A model generated the notes under the pieces. The model was not told the origin of the DNA and did not search any database. It saw nothing but the letters and a program-made list of their open reading frames with translations. Both the position numbers and the translations under genes were made by a program. A stretch of DNA of 61,433 nucleotides, filler included, from Dimargaris cristalligena (Eukaryota), in the NCBI GenBank assembly GCA_003614675.1. It is 2 parts of 2 records of this genome, joined end to end, with 100 filler letters (N's around TTAATTAATTAA, not from the genome) between each part and the next. Parts side by side here need not be neighbours in the genome. Positions count along the whole stretch, not along the records: positions 30,821 to 61,433 come from ML002453.1; 1 more part is not named here. The stretch is one strand, 5' to 3'. Shown here one piece after another: positions 1,135 through 60,767 of the stretch; position 1 is the first letter of the stretch, and every line of letters begins with the position of its first letter.

Positions 1135-4100
1135 TTACATTCGGTGATTGAAATCGGGGGTATGGGCCAAAAGCCCGCCCTGGATATGCTTGCTTTCATG
1201 AGACGTAATTCCAATCGAATTGAGTACGTCCCGGATCTCAGTCCGGCGATTTTCACGTGGGAAAGTCCCGCGTGTCAGACTTTGAGTCTGCAACTCAGAG
1301 TCGGTATCATCCTGTTCGCTTGAATCGGGTCCGCCCATCTGGGCATACAGGGCCTCCCGTAGATTTTCAACCCGTACGTTCTCATGTTCTTGATAGGGGT
1401 GGCCCTCCAAGGAATTGCGCGCTGAAATATTAGAAATCGGCGCATTGGAAATCGACGTTCCATCGGTCGCGGACCCCAGCGTAGTCGGGGGACTAAGAAG
1501 TGTTGTTCGTGAGGTAACTGGGGATCCGGAAACATTCGACTGGCCCAGCTGAGAGGGCGGTAGGAGCAACGACCGGGTGGCGCCTCCCTTCAAGGCATCC
1601 AGATTCAGCGAAGCCCGAATTTGGGACCGGGAAGACATCCGGCGAGTGGTGCGCTGCTTATTGAGAAGCCCCGGTCGCTCCACAGCGGGGTAGTTACTCG
1701 TCAGGCGGTCCTGCAAATCGGGGTACTCGCGCAGCAACTGTTTACAGGCCGACAAGCACTCGAACACCTTAGAGACAGATACTAGCAACTCAGGCTCAAA
1801 GTGGAATTCGGATAGGCCAGTGGCAACGGAAAGGGGGATGGAAGGGGGGCCGTCGCCGGTGGGTGAGTCCCGAGTGTTAAGGGGAGTGGTCATGGCTGCA
1901 GCCAGGGCACTATCGCCCGATGACGTATTGGTGGTGGAGGAGGTCAAGGTCCGAATGGTGCCGGTTTCGGAATTCACCAACGACAGCTCAAACAAGTGGT
2001 ATTGGATGTTCTCAAGCCGGGGGGCCAAGAGGCAGCCTTCAACGACAGCATCCCACAGATTGACGGCTCGCCGCCGCCGGATAAGGTCCTCGGTGTAGTC
2101 GACCAAAGCCGGAATACCGAATGTCTGGGCAGCATAGAGCAAGTACATAACAATCATGGTGTTCAGATAGACCGCCAGGGCAGACTTCAGTTCACGTGCA
2201 AAGGTCTGCAGCTTAAGCATCATGGGAAGCACGAGGACCAACTCCTCGTGGGTGTAGCGCTGCAGGAGTAGCATGAGGATCACCCCGATACCGATCACGT
2301 CGTTACCGACACTGGACGGCTGCATAGCGTAGTTGAATAGAGCGCGGTGGAATTGGGAGCGGGACTCGATGTCAATCAGGGAGGCCCGGCGGCTTTGTAA
2401 AATGTGCCCACTGGAACCGGGCCGGGATCGGTTAGGAAGCAGCGGGGTGGCCCGGGATTCGCCGTCTACTTCGGACCCATCGTCGGGCCTTCCAAATGCG
2501 GCCACTAGCATAGTGTTTGAGTTCCGGTAGTACTCGGCATTTTGGTGGTAAAGTATGTCAATGACGAACTGAACGTAATGAAGACGGACGTTGATACTCG
2601 CCTCGGCGAAAAGGAAGGTGGTAGGGGCAATCAGACTGAGGCTGGTGGTAGAAACGATCATACTAGGCTGGTGGATATGGGCCTGTACATTGGTACGCAA
2701 TACGCAGGATACGGCTTGCAACAGAGCGATACGAAGTTTGGCAAGCTGGCGGGCGCTGGCGGCTTCCCCGGTACTGAGTGAGTGGGGAATAAGTCGCTCC
2801 CGGTAGGCGGAACTATTGCTAGTGACGGACTCATCGCCCCACGACTCGTCGGGGATCTGCAGTTCCTCCATAGTATGAACGACAATATCGGCGATTTGCT
2901 CGGCGTAATAGGTGTGGGTGCCCAATCCCCCTACGGCTGTAATTAGCTCCGATATGATATCACCGATGCGTACCGGAATGGTGGTCATCATCATGGGATC
3001 AGTGCCGGAGCTAGAGCCACCGGTACCTTGGTGACCGGGTGGGCAGGAGGACGAACCAAAATATCTACCGGAATTGATGGACCCAAAGTGGGCCCCGGGA
3101 CCAAGGCTGCTCCGAGACTTGCCCAGGGGTGGGGAGCCTAAAACCACCGAGCCCAGGGCCAATCGGGAGCAGGAGCAGGGTTGCTGGGAGTCGGTGTGGA
3201 TGGTACAGGGGGCCGTAGGTCCTGGTGGAGGGGAGGTTCCGGACGAGCGGCCCTGGTCAGAGGACAGCCGAGAAGTCTGGGAAGGAGCACCGCCACTGAC
3301 CATGGCGCTGCTCGAGGGGCCACGACCGGCCATTTGGCCCACGGAGCGAGTGTCGCTCCGGGCTTGGCCATTGATGGCAAAATTGAACCGGTCGAGGCTA
3401 GCCGACTGACGAAGGGATGGTCCCTGCATCCGAGCGATTTGGATCTCCTCCTCGTCCTGCAGTAATACATTCACCACCAAGTGGCGTAGCAGGGTGTCAA
3501 GAATTTCCAGCACGGACAGACCGACCAGGGTATACCGGCCATTTAGCAAGGACGAAAGAAGGCGAGCAAGGCTCAGCTTTTTAGGGGCCTGGAGGTAGCT
3601 CTTCTCCAGGCGGGACTGGGTGGATTCGGCAAGGGCCCCAGCTCCTCCATCCGGTCCGGGGTTCTCGCTCGGGGAAGTGGTGCTGTTGAGACCCACGCTG
3701 CTACTAGAGGCATCAGGGGCCCCAGCGGGTGCCGCGTTGAGGGATAGATCCACCTGGCCCAATTCCTGCAGTAGCTCGGACACGAGGACGAACCGGTACT
3801 GGGGTTTGAGGGAGGCCATAATGTGGCTGAAGAGGTGGATGATGGGCTCACTGGGGTGCCACTGTGGGTTGGAGAGGTTGATGAAGCCAATCGTCTGGGC
3901 CACGAGAAAACGGGAGTTCAGGCTGTTGCCATTTTCAACCATGTCCTTGAGGGTTATCCAGGCCAGAGCACTAACTATATCGGGGTTCACAGAGGGGTTC
4001 TGCATACCCAGGCTCTGGACATAGGTCCACTGTAGCTTCCGGTGGGCCTTTTCCCCCTCCGTAGGCCATACGCCGGTCAGATTTTTGAGGATGGCGGGCA

Positions 4101-19414: not shown

Positions 19415-22400
19415 CGGCACTGACGACGTTATGAATCAAGGGCAGGGGAAGGGAATAGGAAGACAGATGGGAAGTGTTGAGGGAATTAAAACAGCCTGGT
19501 GGTTTTGAGTAAAGGAAAGTATGGGGACCAGATAAGGGTATGCAGTTTTGAATGGGGGAGCTTGAAGAGAACTACGACTGGCTCCAATATCGAATAGTGG
19601 GTAGAGTGGGATTAAACAGTCGGCCTATTCGGGAAGATTGCTAAAGACGCGGGCAGTTGAGTGTATGACTGTACAGAGGGAGGCTAGGAAGGACAGACAG
19701 GGCCAGATCGGGTCAGGCAAACCAAAGAAAGTTAATAACTAAAGCACCTACGGCCGTATTAGGGAAATGGGGAAGGCTGCGGATGCTGGGAGAGAGAAAA
19801 AGACGAGACACACACGCGTTAAGATTTCCCAAAGTGGTTGCGTAAGGAAAAGAGAGCAAGGCTGGGTGCGGGAGTAGAGCCGAGGATGAGTAAGAAGCAA
19901 AGGATGAAAAAGAAGAGAGGGGATTGGAGGATGGGAAAGTGAATGGGGGGCAAACGTCAGTTGTCTGACTACTCTAAGTGTTGACGACACAATAGCGAAG
20001 CAAAGGTATAATAAGGAGGAGATAAAATATAAGGGTTAGTAGTATATTGAAATAAGGTAAGTAAGGAGCAACCCGAAGAATAAGGGGAAGAAGGAAGAAC
20101 AAAAAGGGCCGGGAGGCAGGGGTGGGGACGAGACGCGTGGTATTTATAAACGGATTATAGACTTACTCTGGCAGGGAGATCGGACCCAAGCAGAAAAAAA
20201 ATGAAATAGGGTTGGGTGTGAGCCCACCACCACACCACTATCAATGGCAGCACACACTCAGCAACCACGCTTGGGCATAGTGTGCGCCGGTCTATTGTAA
20301 GAAGTGTCCGTGTGTGTGGCCCGGTTGTCTATATACATCACCCACCCAGGTTATAATATAATACCCTCCGGACGGCGGTGGTTTATTTGGGGAAGTATCA
20401 CAAGGGGCGCGTTACATCGCCACCAGTAGTGCCAGATCCCTGATGGGTGAAGCGAGTGAGTGTGGGAGGAGAAGGGGCAATGTTGATGGGATGATTTGAC
20501 TATATTCTGTATAGTCTGGACCTAATCAGGGAACTCCTCTCCCCCCTCGTACAAACTACGGACGGACATCCTTTGAGCCATACATAAGCCACACTCGCCA
20601 TATGCGGTAACCCAGCTAGTGCGACGAATATATAGGCAGCCACTACGACCAACACGCATGAATAACGAATGAAGTGGCCATGTCCAAATAACCATGCCGT
20701 CACTATATATAACTCATGCATATATATACACACCCTCGTTAAACATACCCAAATACGACTACTATAGGGCTCCGCGCGGGGGAGGGGGGGTTTGTTCGGC
20801 CATTATTCCCCCCCCCACCTTCGCTGATGTCGCCGGGGTCACTAGCCAAGGCCTCCTCCATCGTGCCGTCCAGCGACACTGACAAAGCCAAACCAAAGGC
20901 CACCTTGGTAGGTAGAGGATCTGTCTCTGAACGCGGATGGCCGTCGTGTGTAAATCAGGGGCAACCGCCGCTCCTTACCATAGTGTTAGCATCGTCGCAT
21001 CGCTGGTTAAAAATGATGCTAAGAAGTAATTTAGAAGCAGTGTAGAAAGAGATGCAAGAGCAACTTGGCCTTGCCTTGATGTCCAGCCGTTTCGGCCTAG
21101 TTATATACTGCATACAAACACGCCGTCTGGCATTAGGCGGTCTCTGTGCATGCCATATATGCACCAGGTAGCAACCTCCTCCCCTCCCTCTCTACTCGCT
21201 GTTGGGTTTGCCACATGCACCCGCTTTTCATCCATCTTACCCCCTCCGCCGCTATGCGCGCATTCATTTTAACGGTACACCGTGCGCTTCGTTCAGAAAT
21301 ATGTCTACTCTGACTCTCTGGTATGTCGGTCTTCCCCGAGTTCATTTTAGCGCGGCATTCCCCTGCGACCATCTCTTTACTGATTAGTCTTTCCGGTCCG
21401 CTACACCACCGACTCCTCCAGAGACCGTCCAATTGGACCTTCTTCGTTCATTCCCCTCCAACCGCCATCACCCGAGGTTTGAGGACATATTCCATGCAGG
21501 GGAGTCGGTGATGGTGTTTCCGAGAAGCCAACGAGGCTATCTTGTAGTTCAACACCAACGGGACACTACTATGTGAACAAGGTGACGACGATCCTCAACC
21601 ATCAATCACACCACGGATCCTCCCCCCCAAAAAACAAATTAATTTCCGGCGAGTCATGGCGATACACACCACTTGGCATAACTCAAGGGATGGCTGCGAC
21701 CTGGCCTAGTATCTCGAAACCACCGCCCAATAGCTGTAGATGGGCCGAGTTTGGAGTGAAGATGGCATCCTTTCCTTTCAAATCCTACCCCGAATCCTCC
21801 CAATTCTAATATACTACTTTGTTCATCAGGGTATTTTTCCCGCAGCCTAAGTCTATCTAATTGGTCATTTGACGTGCCACTGTCCATGACGGGTAGTCGC
21901 GGCCTTGCGTGTCTAATCACACTCATCCGCTCGGCCCGTCGATTGGCTCAAGAGGCACTGGCCAATCTATGTAAACCCAAGCCAAATCAAACCAAGATAA
22001 ATCCCCCTCCCCCCATAAATACAGACTGCACATACACATGGGAGAAGTTCATCCAAGCCGTATAACGAAAAATCCATTAGATTCGGCCAATATTATAGTT
22101 AAAAATACATTTCCCATATATTTTCCCATACACGTATAATGTAAACCCTTATATAGCTGGGCCGAATTTCACCCACATCCAGCCCAGCTCCATGACCCAA
22201 AAATTAAGTTGATCAACCGGTCCCCTCTAAATCTGGGTTAAAAATAGATATGATTAAAAAGTATTCATTAATACTAACATATACTTGAAAATATGATTAG
22301 AATCGCCAAAGCCCCAAATAAATGCGAGGGGCATCTGAAATAATTGATAGTATATCGGCCCGCTACGAGAGGCTCGCGGTTATCAACCGGTGCCTAGGAA

Positions 22401-30720: not shown

Positions 30721-30820
30721 NNNNNNNNNNNNNNNNNNNNNNNNNNNNNNNNNNNNNNNNNNNNTTAATTAATTAANNNNNNNNNNNNNNNNNNNNNNNN
30801 NNNNNNNNNNNNNNNNNNNN
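30721..30820. other. Assembly gap / artificial contig linker N44-TTAATTAATTAA-N44
   Basis: Symmetric 100-bp spacer whose palindromic core puts stop codons in all six frames; not biological sequence. Confidence 0.95.
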
Positions 30821-41442: not shown

Positions 41443-42004
41443 ACTCCATTTACTTTATATCCGATATACTAAGTTATAGTTTTCTACATTTTATTTTTAT
41501 TTTCTCTTTGCCAACGTTTTATTATCACTGTTCTCCAACCACTGACGTTTATGCAGTCTTACAACCATACCAATTGTTTTAAAACAAATGAATAAAACAT
41601 ATCTAGAACATAAAATGAATGATTGGACGCGTGGTCAGTAAGCTGCCTCTGAAATAGTTGTATTTTACAATGGAGCGGCGGCCTTTATAGATGTCTCTTG
41701 GGAAGTGTGGTTTTCAGTATACTTAGTGGCGCTGTTCACACACGCAAATGCTCCCCAGGTTGTAGAGTGTGAATTGATTGTTATTGTATTTTTCTTTTGA
41801 AACGTCTACCATTATTTTTGGCGTGGTATTAAGGTTTCCGGTATCCCCTCGGCTATTGATTTGATGCACCTTAGTAACTGAGATTATAATCATGTTGACT
41901 GAATGGATAAACCAATGTTGCTAGATAGAAGTGATAGGCCCCCATCAATTTACCATGAAACAGCTCGTCAACTAAATGGACAGACTACTTTGACCATTTC
42001 TAAG

Positions 42005-42024
42005 GTCACATGACATCACATGAC
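42005..42024. promoter_or_regulatory. Tandem E-box-like elements upstream of the snoRNA host gene
   Basis: GTCACATGAC immediately followed by ATCACATGAC (CACATG core twice); function inferred. Confidence 0.4.
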
Positions 42025-42312
42025 TTTGAAAATATACCGCCCATCTTTTATTTTTTTTATTGATGAAGCCAGATTTCACTCAGAATTTTTTGCTTCCCAA
42101 TATTCTTGATACGTTTACAAAAAAAACGGACTAGTATTTAACCCATTTGGTTCCAGGCCTAATTGGAGAATCAACTGCTTCATCATTTATATTCTTCTAT
42201 GTGGGTATAGGTTTGGGTATTGTCTATTCCAATAATCGGTAAGTTAAACCTCTATTTTCGCGTCTTGTAGTTTACGTGCATCCTGACTGTGTCTCTTTCA
42301 GGATGCACTCTT

Positions 42313-42412
42313 GTGTAGGATTGATGATCATTGAAGACGAGTCTAAAGAGGTTATCTCTCATGTCGACAAACCCTTTCATTTGGCAATTATTTTTTTTGG
42401 CTGACCGAACAC
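42313..42412 (+). ncRNA. Box C/D snoRNA, snR75/SNORD15-like (25S Gm2288-equivalent guide, imperfect)
   Basis: C box TTGATGA at 42321; GAAGACGAG-T-CTAA resembles the snR75/U15 element GATGACGAG-T-CTGA; D box CTGA at 42401; imperfect terminal stem GTGTAGG/CCGAACAC; sits immediately upstream of the snR74-like RNA. Confidence 0.55.
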
Positions 42413-42607
42413 CCAAGCAGCATTGAATACGTGTCTGGAACTGGCTTTGACAGTGACTAATACCTTGTAACCGCCCTGTCCTTGTACTACTTCCATCAAA
42501 CCCCTTAGATCGTGTTATGTTTATAATAAATGATGTAGTTCGTTGACCATTTGTAGTTCGCGACAGTAAGGTAATTGCCGATTTTATTTATGCTAAATCG
42601 CAAACTA

Positions 42608-42675
42608 ATGGTAATGATGTATTAATATTTAACAAGCATATGTCTGACTAGTGATGACAAATAGGACTGAATCAT
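42608..42675 (+). ncRNA. Box C/D snoRNA snR74/SNORD27 homolog (18S Am28 equivalent)
   Basis: C box ATGATGT at 42614; guide ACAAGCATATG 42632-42642 is complementary to the conserved 18S 5' sequence CATATGCTTGT; D' CTGA at 42644, C' GTGATGA at 42651, D CTGA at 42667; terminal stem ATGGT/ATCAT. The D+5 rule lands on yeast-numbered A28. Confidence 0.88.
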
Positions 42676-42859
42676 CAATACCGAGATTTGGTGGGATGTT
42701 TTGAATGTTCTGGTGACTAACTGCTGAATACCCGGATCCACTTTACTTCCTTCGAATAGTTTAATAGAAACCTTGTCACGAAAGGTCAATGTGTTCGTCG
42801 TTTCAGTTTTCAGTTAATTGGTAAGTTTCGCTGAGCTTGTTATACTACCCTGTCGCTCT

Positions 42860-42950
42860 ACTATATGATGAATTATATCACGACGGTCTAATGATTGTAG
42901 GCAAAAAGCCTTAATGATTAAGCGGCCAGTACTAGGCATTTTCTGATCAC
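42860..42950 (+). ncRNA. Box C/D snoRNA snR73/SNORD35 homolog (25S Cm2959 equivalent)
   Basis: C box ATGATGA at 42865; 13-nt guide TCACGACGGTCTA 42878-42890 is complementary to the peptidyl-transferase-centre sequence TAGACCGTCGTGA; D' ATGA at 42891, internal hairpin AGGC/GCCT, C' ATGATTA at 42914, D CTGA at 42943. The D+5 rule lands on yeast-numbered C2959. Confidence 0.88.
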
Positions 42951-43180
42951 CAGCAATTGTCGACTATTCCGGCTTGTGGACGTTGTTCAGCACCATTTTC
43001 TAACCATTGGTAATGTACTTCTACTCTACCCGATTTCCACATTAGATAGCCGGCGACTGTGATTCCCTGTTTCATTGTATAGTTTTTATTTTATGGTCGT
43101 TATAATATTTACTTGAATAAAAAACTATTGTAAATTTATTACCAATCAATTAATCCGATGAAGGACATTACTATCATAAA

Positions 43181-45008
43181 TTACAAGATAGGCTGTTGAA
43201 TAGGCTCATTGAGGGGAACCATCTCGTAGAAGTAGCAGAAATTGGAGTTGATGCCGTCCCAGCCTCGGTTTCCAGATGCGCTGATCATGAAACGGCCGCT
43301 TTGATCAATGATGACTGACGAGATGGCCACCCCGTGGTGGCCCGGAATCACCTGGAACGGAACGCCGACTGACTTGTCGTCGTCAGTGGAGGTCTCCAGA
43401 TCCCACATGCGAAGATTGTCTTGGGAGCCTCTGGTGTGGGGAGTGGAAGGACATGTAAACCATAGGCAGATGGGATACACCAAAATAAGGATATATAATT
43501 ACGGTTAGCAAACGCATTGTACTAGATTGGGGAGGCTACAGAGCGGGGGTCGCTTTTATAGCTGTGTTAGACAAGTGCATAGTTAGGGATTATGCTAAAT
43601 AAAGGCATGTGCACACTTACACGACTATCTGTTTGCCATTGACGGTACAGGTTAGACTTGTAACTGGTCCTGAGTTATTGGGGAGCTTTAAGGTTCGGAT
43701 AAATTGGCCCATTGAGAAGTCCCACTCTTCTACAGTTGCGTTACGGCGGCCGATGTAGACTTTACTGCCGTCAGGCGACCAGGCGCTCTAGTTTCGGGAA
43801 AGTAGATGAAGTCGATATACATATGGTTGCGAGATGGACTAATGTGAGTTAGTGATTTAAAGAAAAAGCTCCGCACCTCCATCAAGTTATCAATAGAAAA
43901 AGATCCAGTCTTGCAATCTGGCCAGTATAATATAACCCCCCCCTGGTAGAAAAGATGGACTTACCGCCAGGCACCACGGTGGGTTTTTCCCTTGTGGATT
44001 GAACGACTGAGGTAACTGCGTGGGGTCTCGCAAATCCCAGAATTTACATTGACCGTCTATGCTAGTAGTCATCAGGATAGGCTGGCTGGGGGCGGACGCT
44101 CCCTTTTCCCCCTCTGTGTTCCCCGTAGTCGGCTGTCGAGGGGTGGGGCGGAATGAAACCCCCGAAATTTGGGACACATGGCCCTTAAACTCTCGGGCAA
44201 CTTGGCCCGTATTGAGGTCCCAATAGAGCACCCGCTTGTCCCACGAACCGCTCACCATGCCGTATTCGTCCGGCGAGATCTTAAGGGCCGATACGGGGAA
44301 AGTATGTTCCTTAAACACGTGGATTTTCCGGCCCTCGTCGAACCGAAGGCCCCACAGGGCAATGTACTTGCTCTGACCCGATACGGCGAACATGGCCTCC
44401 GACTGAACATCCAGACTGTATACAGGGGAGAGGGATCGGCTGTAGTAGGGGTTTTTGACGCTACCTCGGATGGTATCCGGATACGGGTCGGGTGTGTTGT
44501 CGTTATCCCAGTACGAAGCAATCACACCGGCTTTGGTGACGGTGTCGACTTGCATGTGCCGCTGGCTCTGGGTGAGGGGGAGGGCCCCGTTCATGGAATC
44601 GTAGAAATTCCATTTGCGGATGTAGCCGTCTTCCGATCCCGTCAGGACCCACTTGTTGCAAGGGGTGGCGGCGACCGAATAGATGGCATTCGGGTGGACA
44701 GCGGAGACGTAGGGGATCACATTGTAGGTGCGACAGGTGCCGCAGGTCTTGTAGATGGGGCGGAGGGGTTTGGCCGGATGGTCCAGAATGGTCACTTGGC
44801 CCTCGCCGGGTACCTGTTCGGGTACGACTTTGACTTTGACGAGTGGCTTGGTGGGAACTTTGGCGGTTGATAATGCGGAGGTGGTTGCGGAGGGGTCCTG
44901 CGGATGGCCATCGGTCGATTCGTGCTTCACAAGTACGGGAGCGTCGGCCGATTCGTTCTTCACGGGCACGGGGGCGTCGGCCGATGAAGCCTCGATGGTA
45001 GCGTCCAT
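43181..45008 (-). CDS. SPT8: SAGA complex WD40 subunit Spt8; 3 exons, ~486 aa
   Basis: Exons 45008-43965, 43787-43621 and 43430-43181. Motifs TYNVIPYVSAVH, LTGSEDGYIRKWNF, LTQSQRH, SPVYSLDVQSEA, PPWCLASAWSPDG..YIGRRN and IPGHHG...SGNRGW fit fungal Spt8. Confidence 0.88.
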
Positions 45009-60692: not shown

Positions 60693-60767
60693 GCCTTATT
60701 AGCTCAGTTGGTTTAGAGCGTCGTGCTAATAACGCGAAGGTCACAGGTTCGATCCCTGTATGAGGCA
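60693..60767 (+). tRNA. tRNA-Ile (anticodon AAT), intronless
   Basis: Acceptor stem GCCTTAT/ATGAGGC plus discriminator A; D arm GCTC..GAGC; anticodon arm TCGTG-CTAATAA-CGCGA; T arm ACAGG-TTCGATC-CCTGT. Confidence 0.96.

Follow-up and report, generated by a model that had tools for sequence, protein, structure and literature searches.

What occupies the gap between the UBP14 gene and its downstream neighbor in Dimargaris cristalligena? The window, which denotes the whole stretch of DNA analyzed (61,433 nucleotides), joins contigs C245 and C246 at positions 30721–30820 by runs of N with a 12-base island, and adjacency of the two contigs is not to be assumed. The gap lies in the middle of contig C246 of the assembly (G000). 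The upstream protein matches a D. cristalligena record at 100% identity, and next in rank come the Ubp14 proteins of Tieghemiomyces, Dispira, and further Dimargaris. The downstream gene encodes a WD40 protein, for which the nearest Atlas clusters are SPT8 (a lead-level match). The species is placed by NCBI in the Kickxellomycota, Dimargaritales. This group is usually counted among the Zoopagomycota. Positions 41900–43180 contain no part of any ORF of at least 50 aa. The earlier note had proposed that a non-coding host gene with three introns, each holding one box C/D snoRNA in the order snR75-snR74-snR73, is hidden here. Matching intron geometry, guides in register with rRNA, and exons free of ORFs together establish a host gene at the level of the sequence. 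It would be transcribed by Pol II, spliced, and non-coding, and would carry snR75-snR74-snR73, which form the 3′ half of the fungal snoRNA cluster I. The probability that we assign to this reading is roughly 0.9.

The gene model is located on the plus strand. Exon 1 (42100–42238, start approximate) ends at the donor of intron 1 (42239–42508, 270 nt), for which the donor GTAAGT, the branch A, and the acceptor TAG appear at 42239, 42460, and ending at 42508, respectively. Exon 2 (42509–42570, 62 nt) is followed by intron 2 (42571–42759, 189 nt) with donor GTAATT at 42571, branch A at 42720, and TAG ending at 42759. Exon 3 (42760–42820, 61 nt) is followed by intron 3 (42821–43045, 225 nt) with donor GTAAGT at 42821, branch A at 43003, and TAG ending at 43045. 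Exon 4 (43046–43140, end approximate) contains AATAAA at 43116, and its putative 3′ end faces that of the convergent SPT8-like gene, which has its stop at 43181. The donors, branches, and acceptors are thus those that had been claimed. Once spliced, the model has ATG ORFs of at most 10–23 aa, depending on the assumed start, and the unspliced sequence has one of 33 aa; the exons lack a long ORF, as in the intronic form of cluster I, and the non-coding assignment stands.

A second potential donor, GTAAGG, starts at 42566 and overlaps GTAATT at 42571; with this donor exon 2 would be 57 nt and intron 2 would be 194 nt. The overlap has a layout like that of a [D5,6] stwintron, in which excision of 42571–42759 would join GTAAG to T and exon 3 could be skipped. 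Papers are cited here by PMC number. In a [D5,6] stwintron the internal intron splits the external donor between its fifth and sixth bases and must leave first (PMC7138796). Since a plausible donor already exists in the GTAAGG at 42566, prior removal of 42571–42759 need not be obligatory.

The branch motifs of the three introns conform to CTAAY. The distances from the end of box D to the branch A are 56, 50, and 57 nt, and those from the branch A to the AG are 48, 39, and 42 nt, for introns 1, 2, and 3, respectively. One snoRNA per intron is found as expected, at a measured 50–57 nt from the branch point rather than the approximately 45–55 nt first given. The five host introns measured here and at the related hosts described below share this geometry (50–62 nt from the end of D to the branch A and 39–54 nt from there to the AG). 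The long branch-to-AG spacing looks normal in this genome, because annotated intron 2 of UBP14 has a branch-like motif about 43 nt from its AG. Three chained donor-branch-acceptor units were obtained in 0 of 5000 dinucleotide shuffles and two units in 11 of 5000; these odds are optimistic, because the patterns were written after the sequence had been seen.

Intron 1 also contains a perfect 11-bp hairpin (42276–42308; −19.5 kcal/mol) that covers a cryptic CTGAC branch-like motif and a cryptic acceptor (AG ending at 42301). Local shuffling of the region gave a stem of this kind in 10 of 1000 trials, and the hairpin is absent from the snR75 paralogue on contig C247. Use of the cryptic sites would yield an intron of 63 nt and place snR75 in an exon; their branch-to-AG spacing, 15 nt, is small by the standard of these genes. 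A strong hairpin ahead of snR75 would suit an unspliced precursor from which the snoRNAs are cut by RNase III-type cleavage and trimming, the splice signals being relics, and fission yeast is known to process snoRNA precursors with RNase III (PMC12508059). This alternative is highly improbable: the splice signals are intact and evenly spaced in the three introns and in two other hosts, no comparable hairpin precedes snR74 or snR73, and a Saccharomyces-like metagenome locus (L055) shows no such splice signals by eye. The spliced host gene remains the preferred reading.

A box C near the 5′ end, a box D (CTGA) near the 3′ end, and an internal D′ are found in all three snoRNAs. The putative snR75 orthologue (42319–42406, plus strand) has box C at 42321–42327, the guide at 42333–42341, D′ (CTAA) at 42343–42346, and D at 42401–42404. 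The putative snR74/SNORD27 orthologue (42609–42674, plus strand) has C at 42613–42619, the guide at 42631–42642, D′ at 42644–42647, C′ at 42651–42657, and D at 42667–42670. The putative snR73 orthologue (42861–42948, plus strand) has C at 42865–42871, the guide at 42878–42890, D′ (ATGA) at 42891–42894, and D at 42943–42946. The D′ box of snR75 is degenerate, with CTAA in the window copy and CCAA in the paralogue; CCAA is also present in metagenome locus L037, where snR75 scores 64 bits. Stable terminal stems were not found for these snoRNAs.

The three introns were compared with Rfam models by E-value, and the best family for each was taken among the 14 matches listed. These families are snR75 (RF01185; 23.7 bits, E 0.027) for intron 1, SNORD27 (RF00086; 33.8 bits, E 0.0015) for intron 2, and snR73 (RF01207; 24.3 bits, E 0.26) for intron 3. 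The check that the earlier note had called for is thus borne out for family but not for score, since the gathering values are 40, 52, and 37 bits, respectively. At the gathering threshold only a tRNA is detected across the window, and all three snoRNAs fall below the cut-off. The snR74 RNAs of clear fungal clusters likewise score under the SNORD27 cut-off, at 36.3 and 48.6 bits. The three RNAs are called orthologues here by putative target and by position, and not as curated Rfam members. HMMs built from three to five metagenome fungal orthologues match the three places with E-values of 1.1e-5 (snR75), 5.4e-5, and 8.5e-4 within 1.8 kb; scaled to the genome these become 0.39, 1.8, and 29, and none is significant singly. 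Among 5000 shuffles, one gave two rRNA-complementary C/D units and none gave two that were intronic; these odds, too, are optimistic, the patterns having been written with the sequence in view. The same C/D detector, run on both strands of the whole window, returned only the snR74 and snR73 units and missed snR75. The identification rests on the combination of this evidence and on no single score. The expected family is best at each intron and the orthologue HMMs agree, which upholds the order snR75-snR74-snR73 with one box C/D snoRNA per intron.

The assembly carries two nuclear rDNAs, a long and divergent one on C850 (L003, L008) and a standard-looking one on C1293 (L004, L009), with SSU sequences that are 72% identical over 1628 columns. 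The C850 LSU is 5.1 kb and contains a group I intron. We infer that the C850 rDNA belongs to Dimargaris; the other may come from a second fungus. The site labels 18S A28 and 25S C2959 are those of the earlier note; A2281 and U2282 are conventional labels or were counted from G2288, and “U15-type guide” is likewise a conventional name. Counted from the Rfam-defined starts in L008 and L003, with the intron and expansions included, the predicted target sites in the C850 rRNA are 18S A28 and U685 and 25S C4675, G2893, and C2269. The labels G2288 and C2197 come from PMC3116282.

The snR74 guide pairs perfectly over 12 nt with the organism's own 18S rRNA at A28, which is its best site in the molecule. 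An A of the guide lies opposite a variant U of the C850 18S rRNA, giving 12 pairs versus 11 with the second, standard rDNA. The snR73 guide pairs in register at 13 of 13 positions with the organism's own 25S rRNA, again at its best site in the molecule, and the target C (the C2959 equivalent) is the same C as for the orthologues in L055 and L068. The two perfect guides that had been reported thus hold on the genome's own rRNA. The target nucleotide equals that of the orthologues for snR74, snR73, snR77, snR76, and the snR75 paralogue; for the families snR75, snR74, and snR73 the comparators were L055 and L068.

Comparators were obtained by a metagenome scan with the snR74 guide, which returned at least 123 stretches; 20 chosen loci were examined with Rfam. 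Cluster neighbors are present beside snR74 in 6 of the at least 123 loci, and the order is unbroken in all 6. The Saccharomyces-like L055 carries 78-77-76-75-74-73-72 with no introns seen and 66–119 bits on six families. L068 and L075 are intronic with 77-76-75-74-73, L037 contains 77-76-75-74, L116 contains 75-74, and L121 contains 74-73. Two further loci (L067 and L063) appear to be non-fungal clusters in which U27/snR74-type RNAs lie near U15/snR75-type RNAs, and L067 also has a snR72-type guide. The U27-U15 linkage may be older than the fungi, or it may be a chance product of large clusters.

The snR75 guide of the window forms 6 bp, a mismatch, and 2 bp in register on the 25S G2288 equivalent, the G to which its orthologues are directed, but its two best 25S sites do not include the expected one. 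This mismatch was absent from the earlier account. The guide of the C247 paralogue forms 6+5 bp, and the expected site ranks first. The window guide pairs over only 6+2 nt because both copies carry an A where five of five comparators have a T and the rRNA is unchanged; a compensatory rRNA change was ruled out, the organism's own 25S rRNA being standard there. Both Dimargaris copies also lack the 10–11-nt element that pairs 3′ of the target and is kept in five of five fungal comparators. In yeast, this downstream extra-pairing element is needed for efficient methylation (PMC3116282). Complements to the 5′ flank are present instead, of 8 nt in the window copy (77 of 2000 shuffles as good) and of 7 nt in the paralogue (275 of 2000), and a candidate segment for extra pairing in the window copy lies at 42378–42385 (plus strand). 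Extra pairing on the 5′ side by these putative snR75 copies is suggestive only.

The weaker pairing in the window (6+2 versus 6+5 bp), together with the rank of the expected 25S site, raises the alternative that the host is real for snR74 and snR73 but that snR75 of intron 1 is decaying and the C247 paralogue methylates the G2288 equivalent. The hairpin unique to intron 1, which stretches the distance from the donor to box C to 82 nt, points the same way. The two copies nevertheless share 79% identity over the snoRNA and have flanks that hardly align, a contrast that points to selection acting on each copy, and the mismatch that they have in common predates the duplication. Boxes C and D of the window copy are intact, and the orthologue HMM gives it 16.3 bits versus 10.7 for the paralogue. 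Decay of the window copy is the less likely outcome.

The earlier note had described a three-member cluster. The identity, order, and placement of the three members stand, but the trio is not alone in the genome. A second non-coding host with two introns is found at C113:4113–4603 (L165:1444–1934, plus strand), with snR77 followed by a probable snR76; it represents the 5′ half of the cluster. Of the nine genomic matches to the snR77 guide pattern, this is the one with a C/D and intron context; the RNA scores 29 bits (E 0.012) with snoR77Y and forms 11 Watson–Crick pairs at the U targeted by its orthologues. The RNA in the second intron has boxes C, D′, and D and a guide in register on the snR76 target, with 12 of 13 positions paired beyond the first. 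It has no match in Rfam, its guide contains a mismatch, its branch motif is weak, and its HMM score is equalled by a chance match. It is probably snR76, a weaker call than snR77. The C113 host sits in the middle of its contig between a GST-like gene (assigned by eye) and a tRNA, and the split is therefore not an assembly break. Identical tRNA genes (anticodon AAU) are located at 60693–60767 of the window (C246) and at L165:2644–2718 (C113).

The second snR75 (C247, snoRNA at 21295–21383, minus strand) resides in a host with a single intron of 269 nt (L002:1388–1656) and the same geometry. It was identified when the gap sequence was compared with the whole genome at the DNA level; the 79% identity covers the snoRNA, and the flanks barely align. 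A relic of intron 2 in this paralogue was considered and is not significant. Physical linkage of C246 and C247 was ruled out, as the window joins separate contigs by runs of N and the three contig numbers follow length. A complete cluster, with snR77 to snR73 in one transcript, is not found at the window locus, which is the 3′ half. The ascomycete cluster I appears in this genome as 77-76 and 75-74-73 with its order kept.

The search for the other members suggested at the outset thus yielded snR77 and a probable snR76, but not snR72 or snR78. The snR72 pattern gave 0 matches in the genome, which is not proof of absence. A snR78 pattern fitted to the altered 25S site gave 11 matches versus 32 for the control, one of them rDNA and none in a C/D context by eye, again without proving absence. 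The yeast snR78 target site is changed in C850 at about 3010–3030 from the start of the L003 LSU, where the U appears as C. The altered target may explain why snR78 was not found. The first snR77 pattern had given three matches, none of them real. A perfect-guide snR76 pattern gave 15 matches, of which 12 were inspected and none was real; the mismatch in the guide of the C113 copy kept it from being detected, and blanks of this kind are therefore not proof of absence. The Rfam model of snR13 returned nothing on the genome, and its control matched nowhere either. An A2281-type D guide gave ten genomic matches, none convincing.

Could the whole pattern be a coincidence of motifs in an AT-rich intergenic gap? 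No Rfam match reaches the gathering level, and short rRNA complements of 8–9 nt are frequent. Against this stand the shuffles, the conserved paralogue, the identical target nucleotides, the conserved order, and a second host that carries missing members, by which chance is effectively refuted.

The two hosts may be ancestral, with 77-76 and 75-74-73 fused only in an ancestor of Mucoromycota and Dikarya, or the split may be derived. Each half is a complete gene in the middle of its contig, the upstream regions of the two are separate and not significantly similar, and in one accepted tree the Zoopagomycota are the sister group of Mucoromycota plus Dikarya (PMC8476143). Against an ancestral two-host state, the cluster is known to fragment, e.g., in Basidiomycota (PMC3596301), the rDNA of this genome is highly divergent, and a recent duplication of a snoRNA host is present. 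The alternative tree in the same source, which joins Zoopagomycota with Mucoromycota, would favor fission (PMC8476143). A derived split is the probable state and an ancestral one is unlikely. Most probably, a 77-76-75-74-73 host existed earlier and was split in this lineage, or was duplicated with reciprocal loss, and snR75 was duplicated again.

A tandem E-box-like sequence, TCACATGAC, at 42006–42024 (plus strand) is a candidate promoter element. Its 14-mer at 42011–42024 occurs exactly twice in the genome, each time upstream of a snR75 host (the reversed control occurs once), and a related 9-mer precedes the snR77 host by a comparable distance. In all three hosts the E-box-like element is about 210–225 nt before the first donor. 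These positions hint, more weakly than for the features above, at a promoter element common to the three hosts. The combination of motif and donor is not enriched genome-wide (21 matches versus 16 for the control). As a general marker of snoRNA hosts the motif is not supported, since a snoRNA is present only at the three known hosts among the 21 motif-plus-donor matches, and five one-mismatch matches of the motif showed no snoRNA by eye. Promoter homology between the C113 host and the snR75 hosts is not significant, as 42 of 500 and 433 of 500 shuffles score as well. In fission yeast, a shared element, Homol-D, drives cluster I (PMC4138321).

Near its 3′ end, snR73 contains a possible second guide (42934–42941, plus strand). 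The best 25S site of this segment is a U, with 8 bp, a mismatch, and 2 bp. For the end segment of the L068 snR73, the best 25S site is the A that precedes the snR75 target by seven bases; the same holds for the U15-like RNA of L067. The L068 RNA (L068:1256–1341, minus strand) is a fungal snR73 that ends in a U15-type guide for the A2281 equivalent, and it is probably a double-guide snR73. The Dimargaris segment is one base shorter, and its register therefore falls on the neighboring U. Part of the segment lies in a hairpin common to four of four aligned snR73 RNAs, two of which are without the guide, and matches of 8 nt to rRNA are frequent. Function of the shifted guide in Dimargaris is doubtful; the unshifted guide of L068 suggests an overlooked double-guide snR73. 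A broader proposal, that Dimargaris has kept a two-host state from before fusion and has rewired its guides around G2288, with a mismatch-tolerant snR75 that docks on the 5′ side and a shifted U15-type guide on snR73, is distinctly unlikely. If it were true, the shifted guide would install a 2′-O-methyl-U at the U2282 equivalent (U2887 in the C850 numbering), a site that is not known to be modified in yeast.

Intronic box C/D snoRNAs are released by debranching and trimming of the intron, are assembled with fibrillarin, and direct methylation opposite the fifth base before D′. In Dimargaris, the host would be transcribed by Pol II and spliced, each lariat would be debranched and trimmed to the snoRNA, and each snoRNA would bind the core proteins Snu13, Nop56, Nop58, and fibrillarin. 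The base paired with the fifth nucleotide before D′ would then be 2′-O-methylated, i.e., 18S A28 by snR74 and the 25S C2959 equivalent by snR73. The 25S G2288 equivalent would be methylated by snR75 less efficiently, or through the better paralogue. The spliced exon RNA would be a by-product.

The locus resembles the intronic form of fungal cluster I (snR78-77-76-75-74-73-72) in its ORF-poor host, one C/D snoRNA per intron, short exons, order, and targets. It differs in that the Dimargaris cluster is split over two hosts on different contigs, with an additional duplicate snR75 host; snR78 and snR72 were not found, and the snR75 guide is mismatched and without the downstream extra-pairing element. 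The snR72–snR78 polycistron of Saccharomyces cerevisiae contains the same families in the same relative order, whereas every member found here is intronic. The loss of introns in these clusters is reportedly the subject of a 2010 Science paper. The primary transcript of the yeast cluster is unspliced (PMC3596301). The U15/SNORD15-type double guides, which are in one Rfam clan with snR75 (CL00045), have in common with Dimargaris the D′ guide for the G2288 equivalent; in contrast to U15, the U15-like segment in Dimargaris ends snR73 and is one base shorter, and snR75 has only 5 bp in the D-guide register. The vertebrate UHG and gas5 hosts are likewise spliced non-coding RNAs with the introns as product (compared in PMC3596301 and PMC2780460), but they carry different snoRNA sets and no sequence homology is claimed.

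Intronic cluster I has been described in Euascomycetes, fission yeasts, Basidiomycota, and Rhizopus oryzae, with loss and scattering of members (PMC3596301), and its splicing has been verified in other fungi (PMC3596301, PMC2780460). Members are catalogued in Neurospora (PMC2780460) and Trichophyton (PMC3890542). The Dimargaris lineage lies outside those surveyed in the available parts of PMC3596301 and PMC2780460. A literature search, with most subscription papers beyond its range, returned no snoRNA report for Dimargaris, and in the available text of papers on Zoopagomycota, snoRNAs, and introns nothing on this cluster was found. With the intronic cluster already known, Rhizopus included, what is new is the rest of the cluster on C113 and C247 and its presence in an early-diverging lineage.

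No new mechanism is revealed. The locus adds diverged snoRNA sequences that escape the present Rfam thresholds, as well as cases in which drift between guide and target can be tested against unusual rRNA. Its value is evolutionary, because the 75-74-73 and 77-76 order exists outside Dikarya and Mucoromycota. Published dates for the cluster disagree: its formation was placed at the root of Ascomycota in PMC5824354, and PMC3596301 reports it in Rhizopus. The ordered 75-74-73 and 77-76 sets in Dimargaritales, with one snoRNA per intron, favor the earlier of these dates and an ancestor whose cluster was intronic, provided that the order did not arise twice, and they suggest that the cluster did not originate at the root of Ascomycota.
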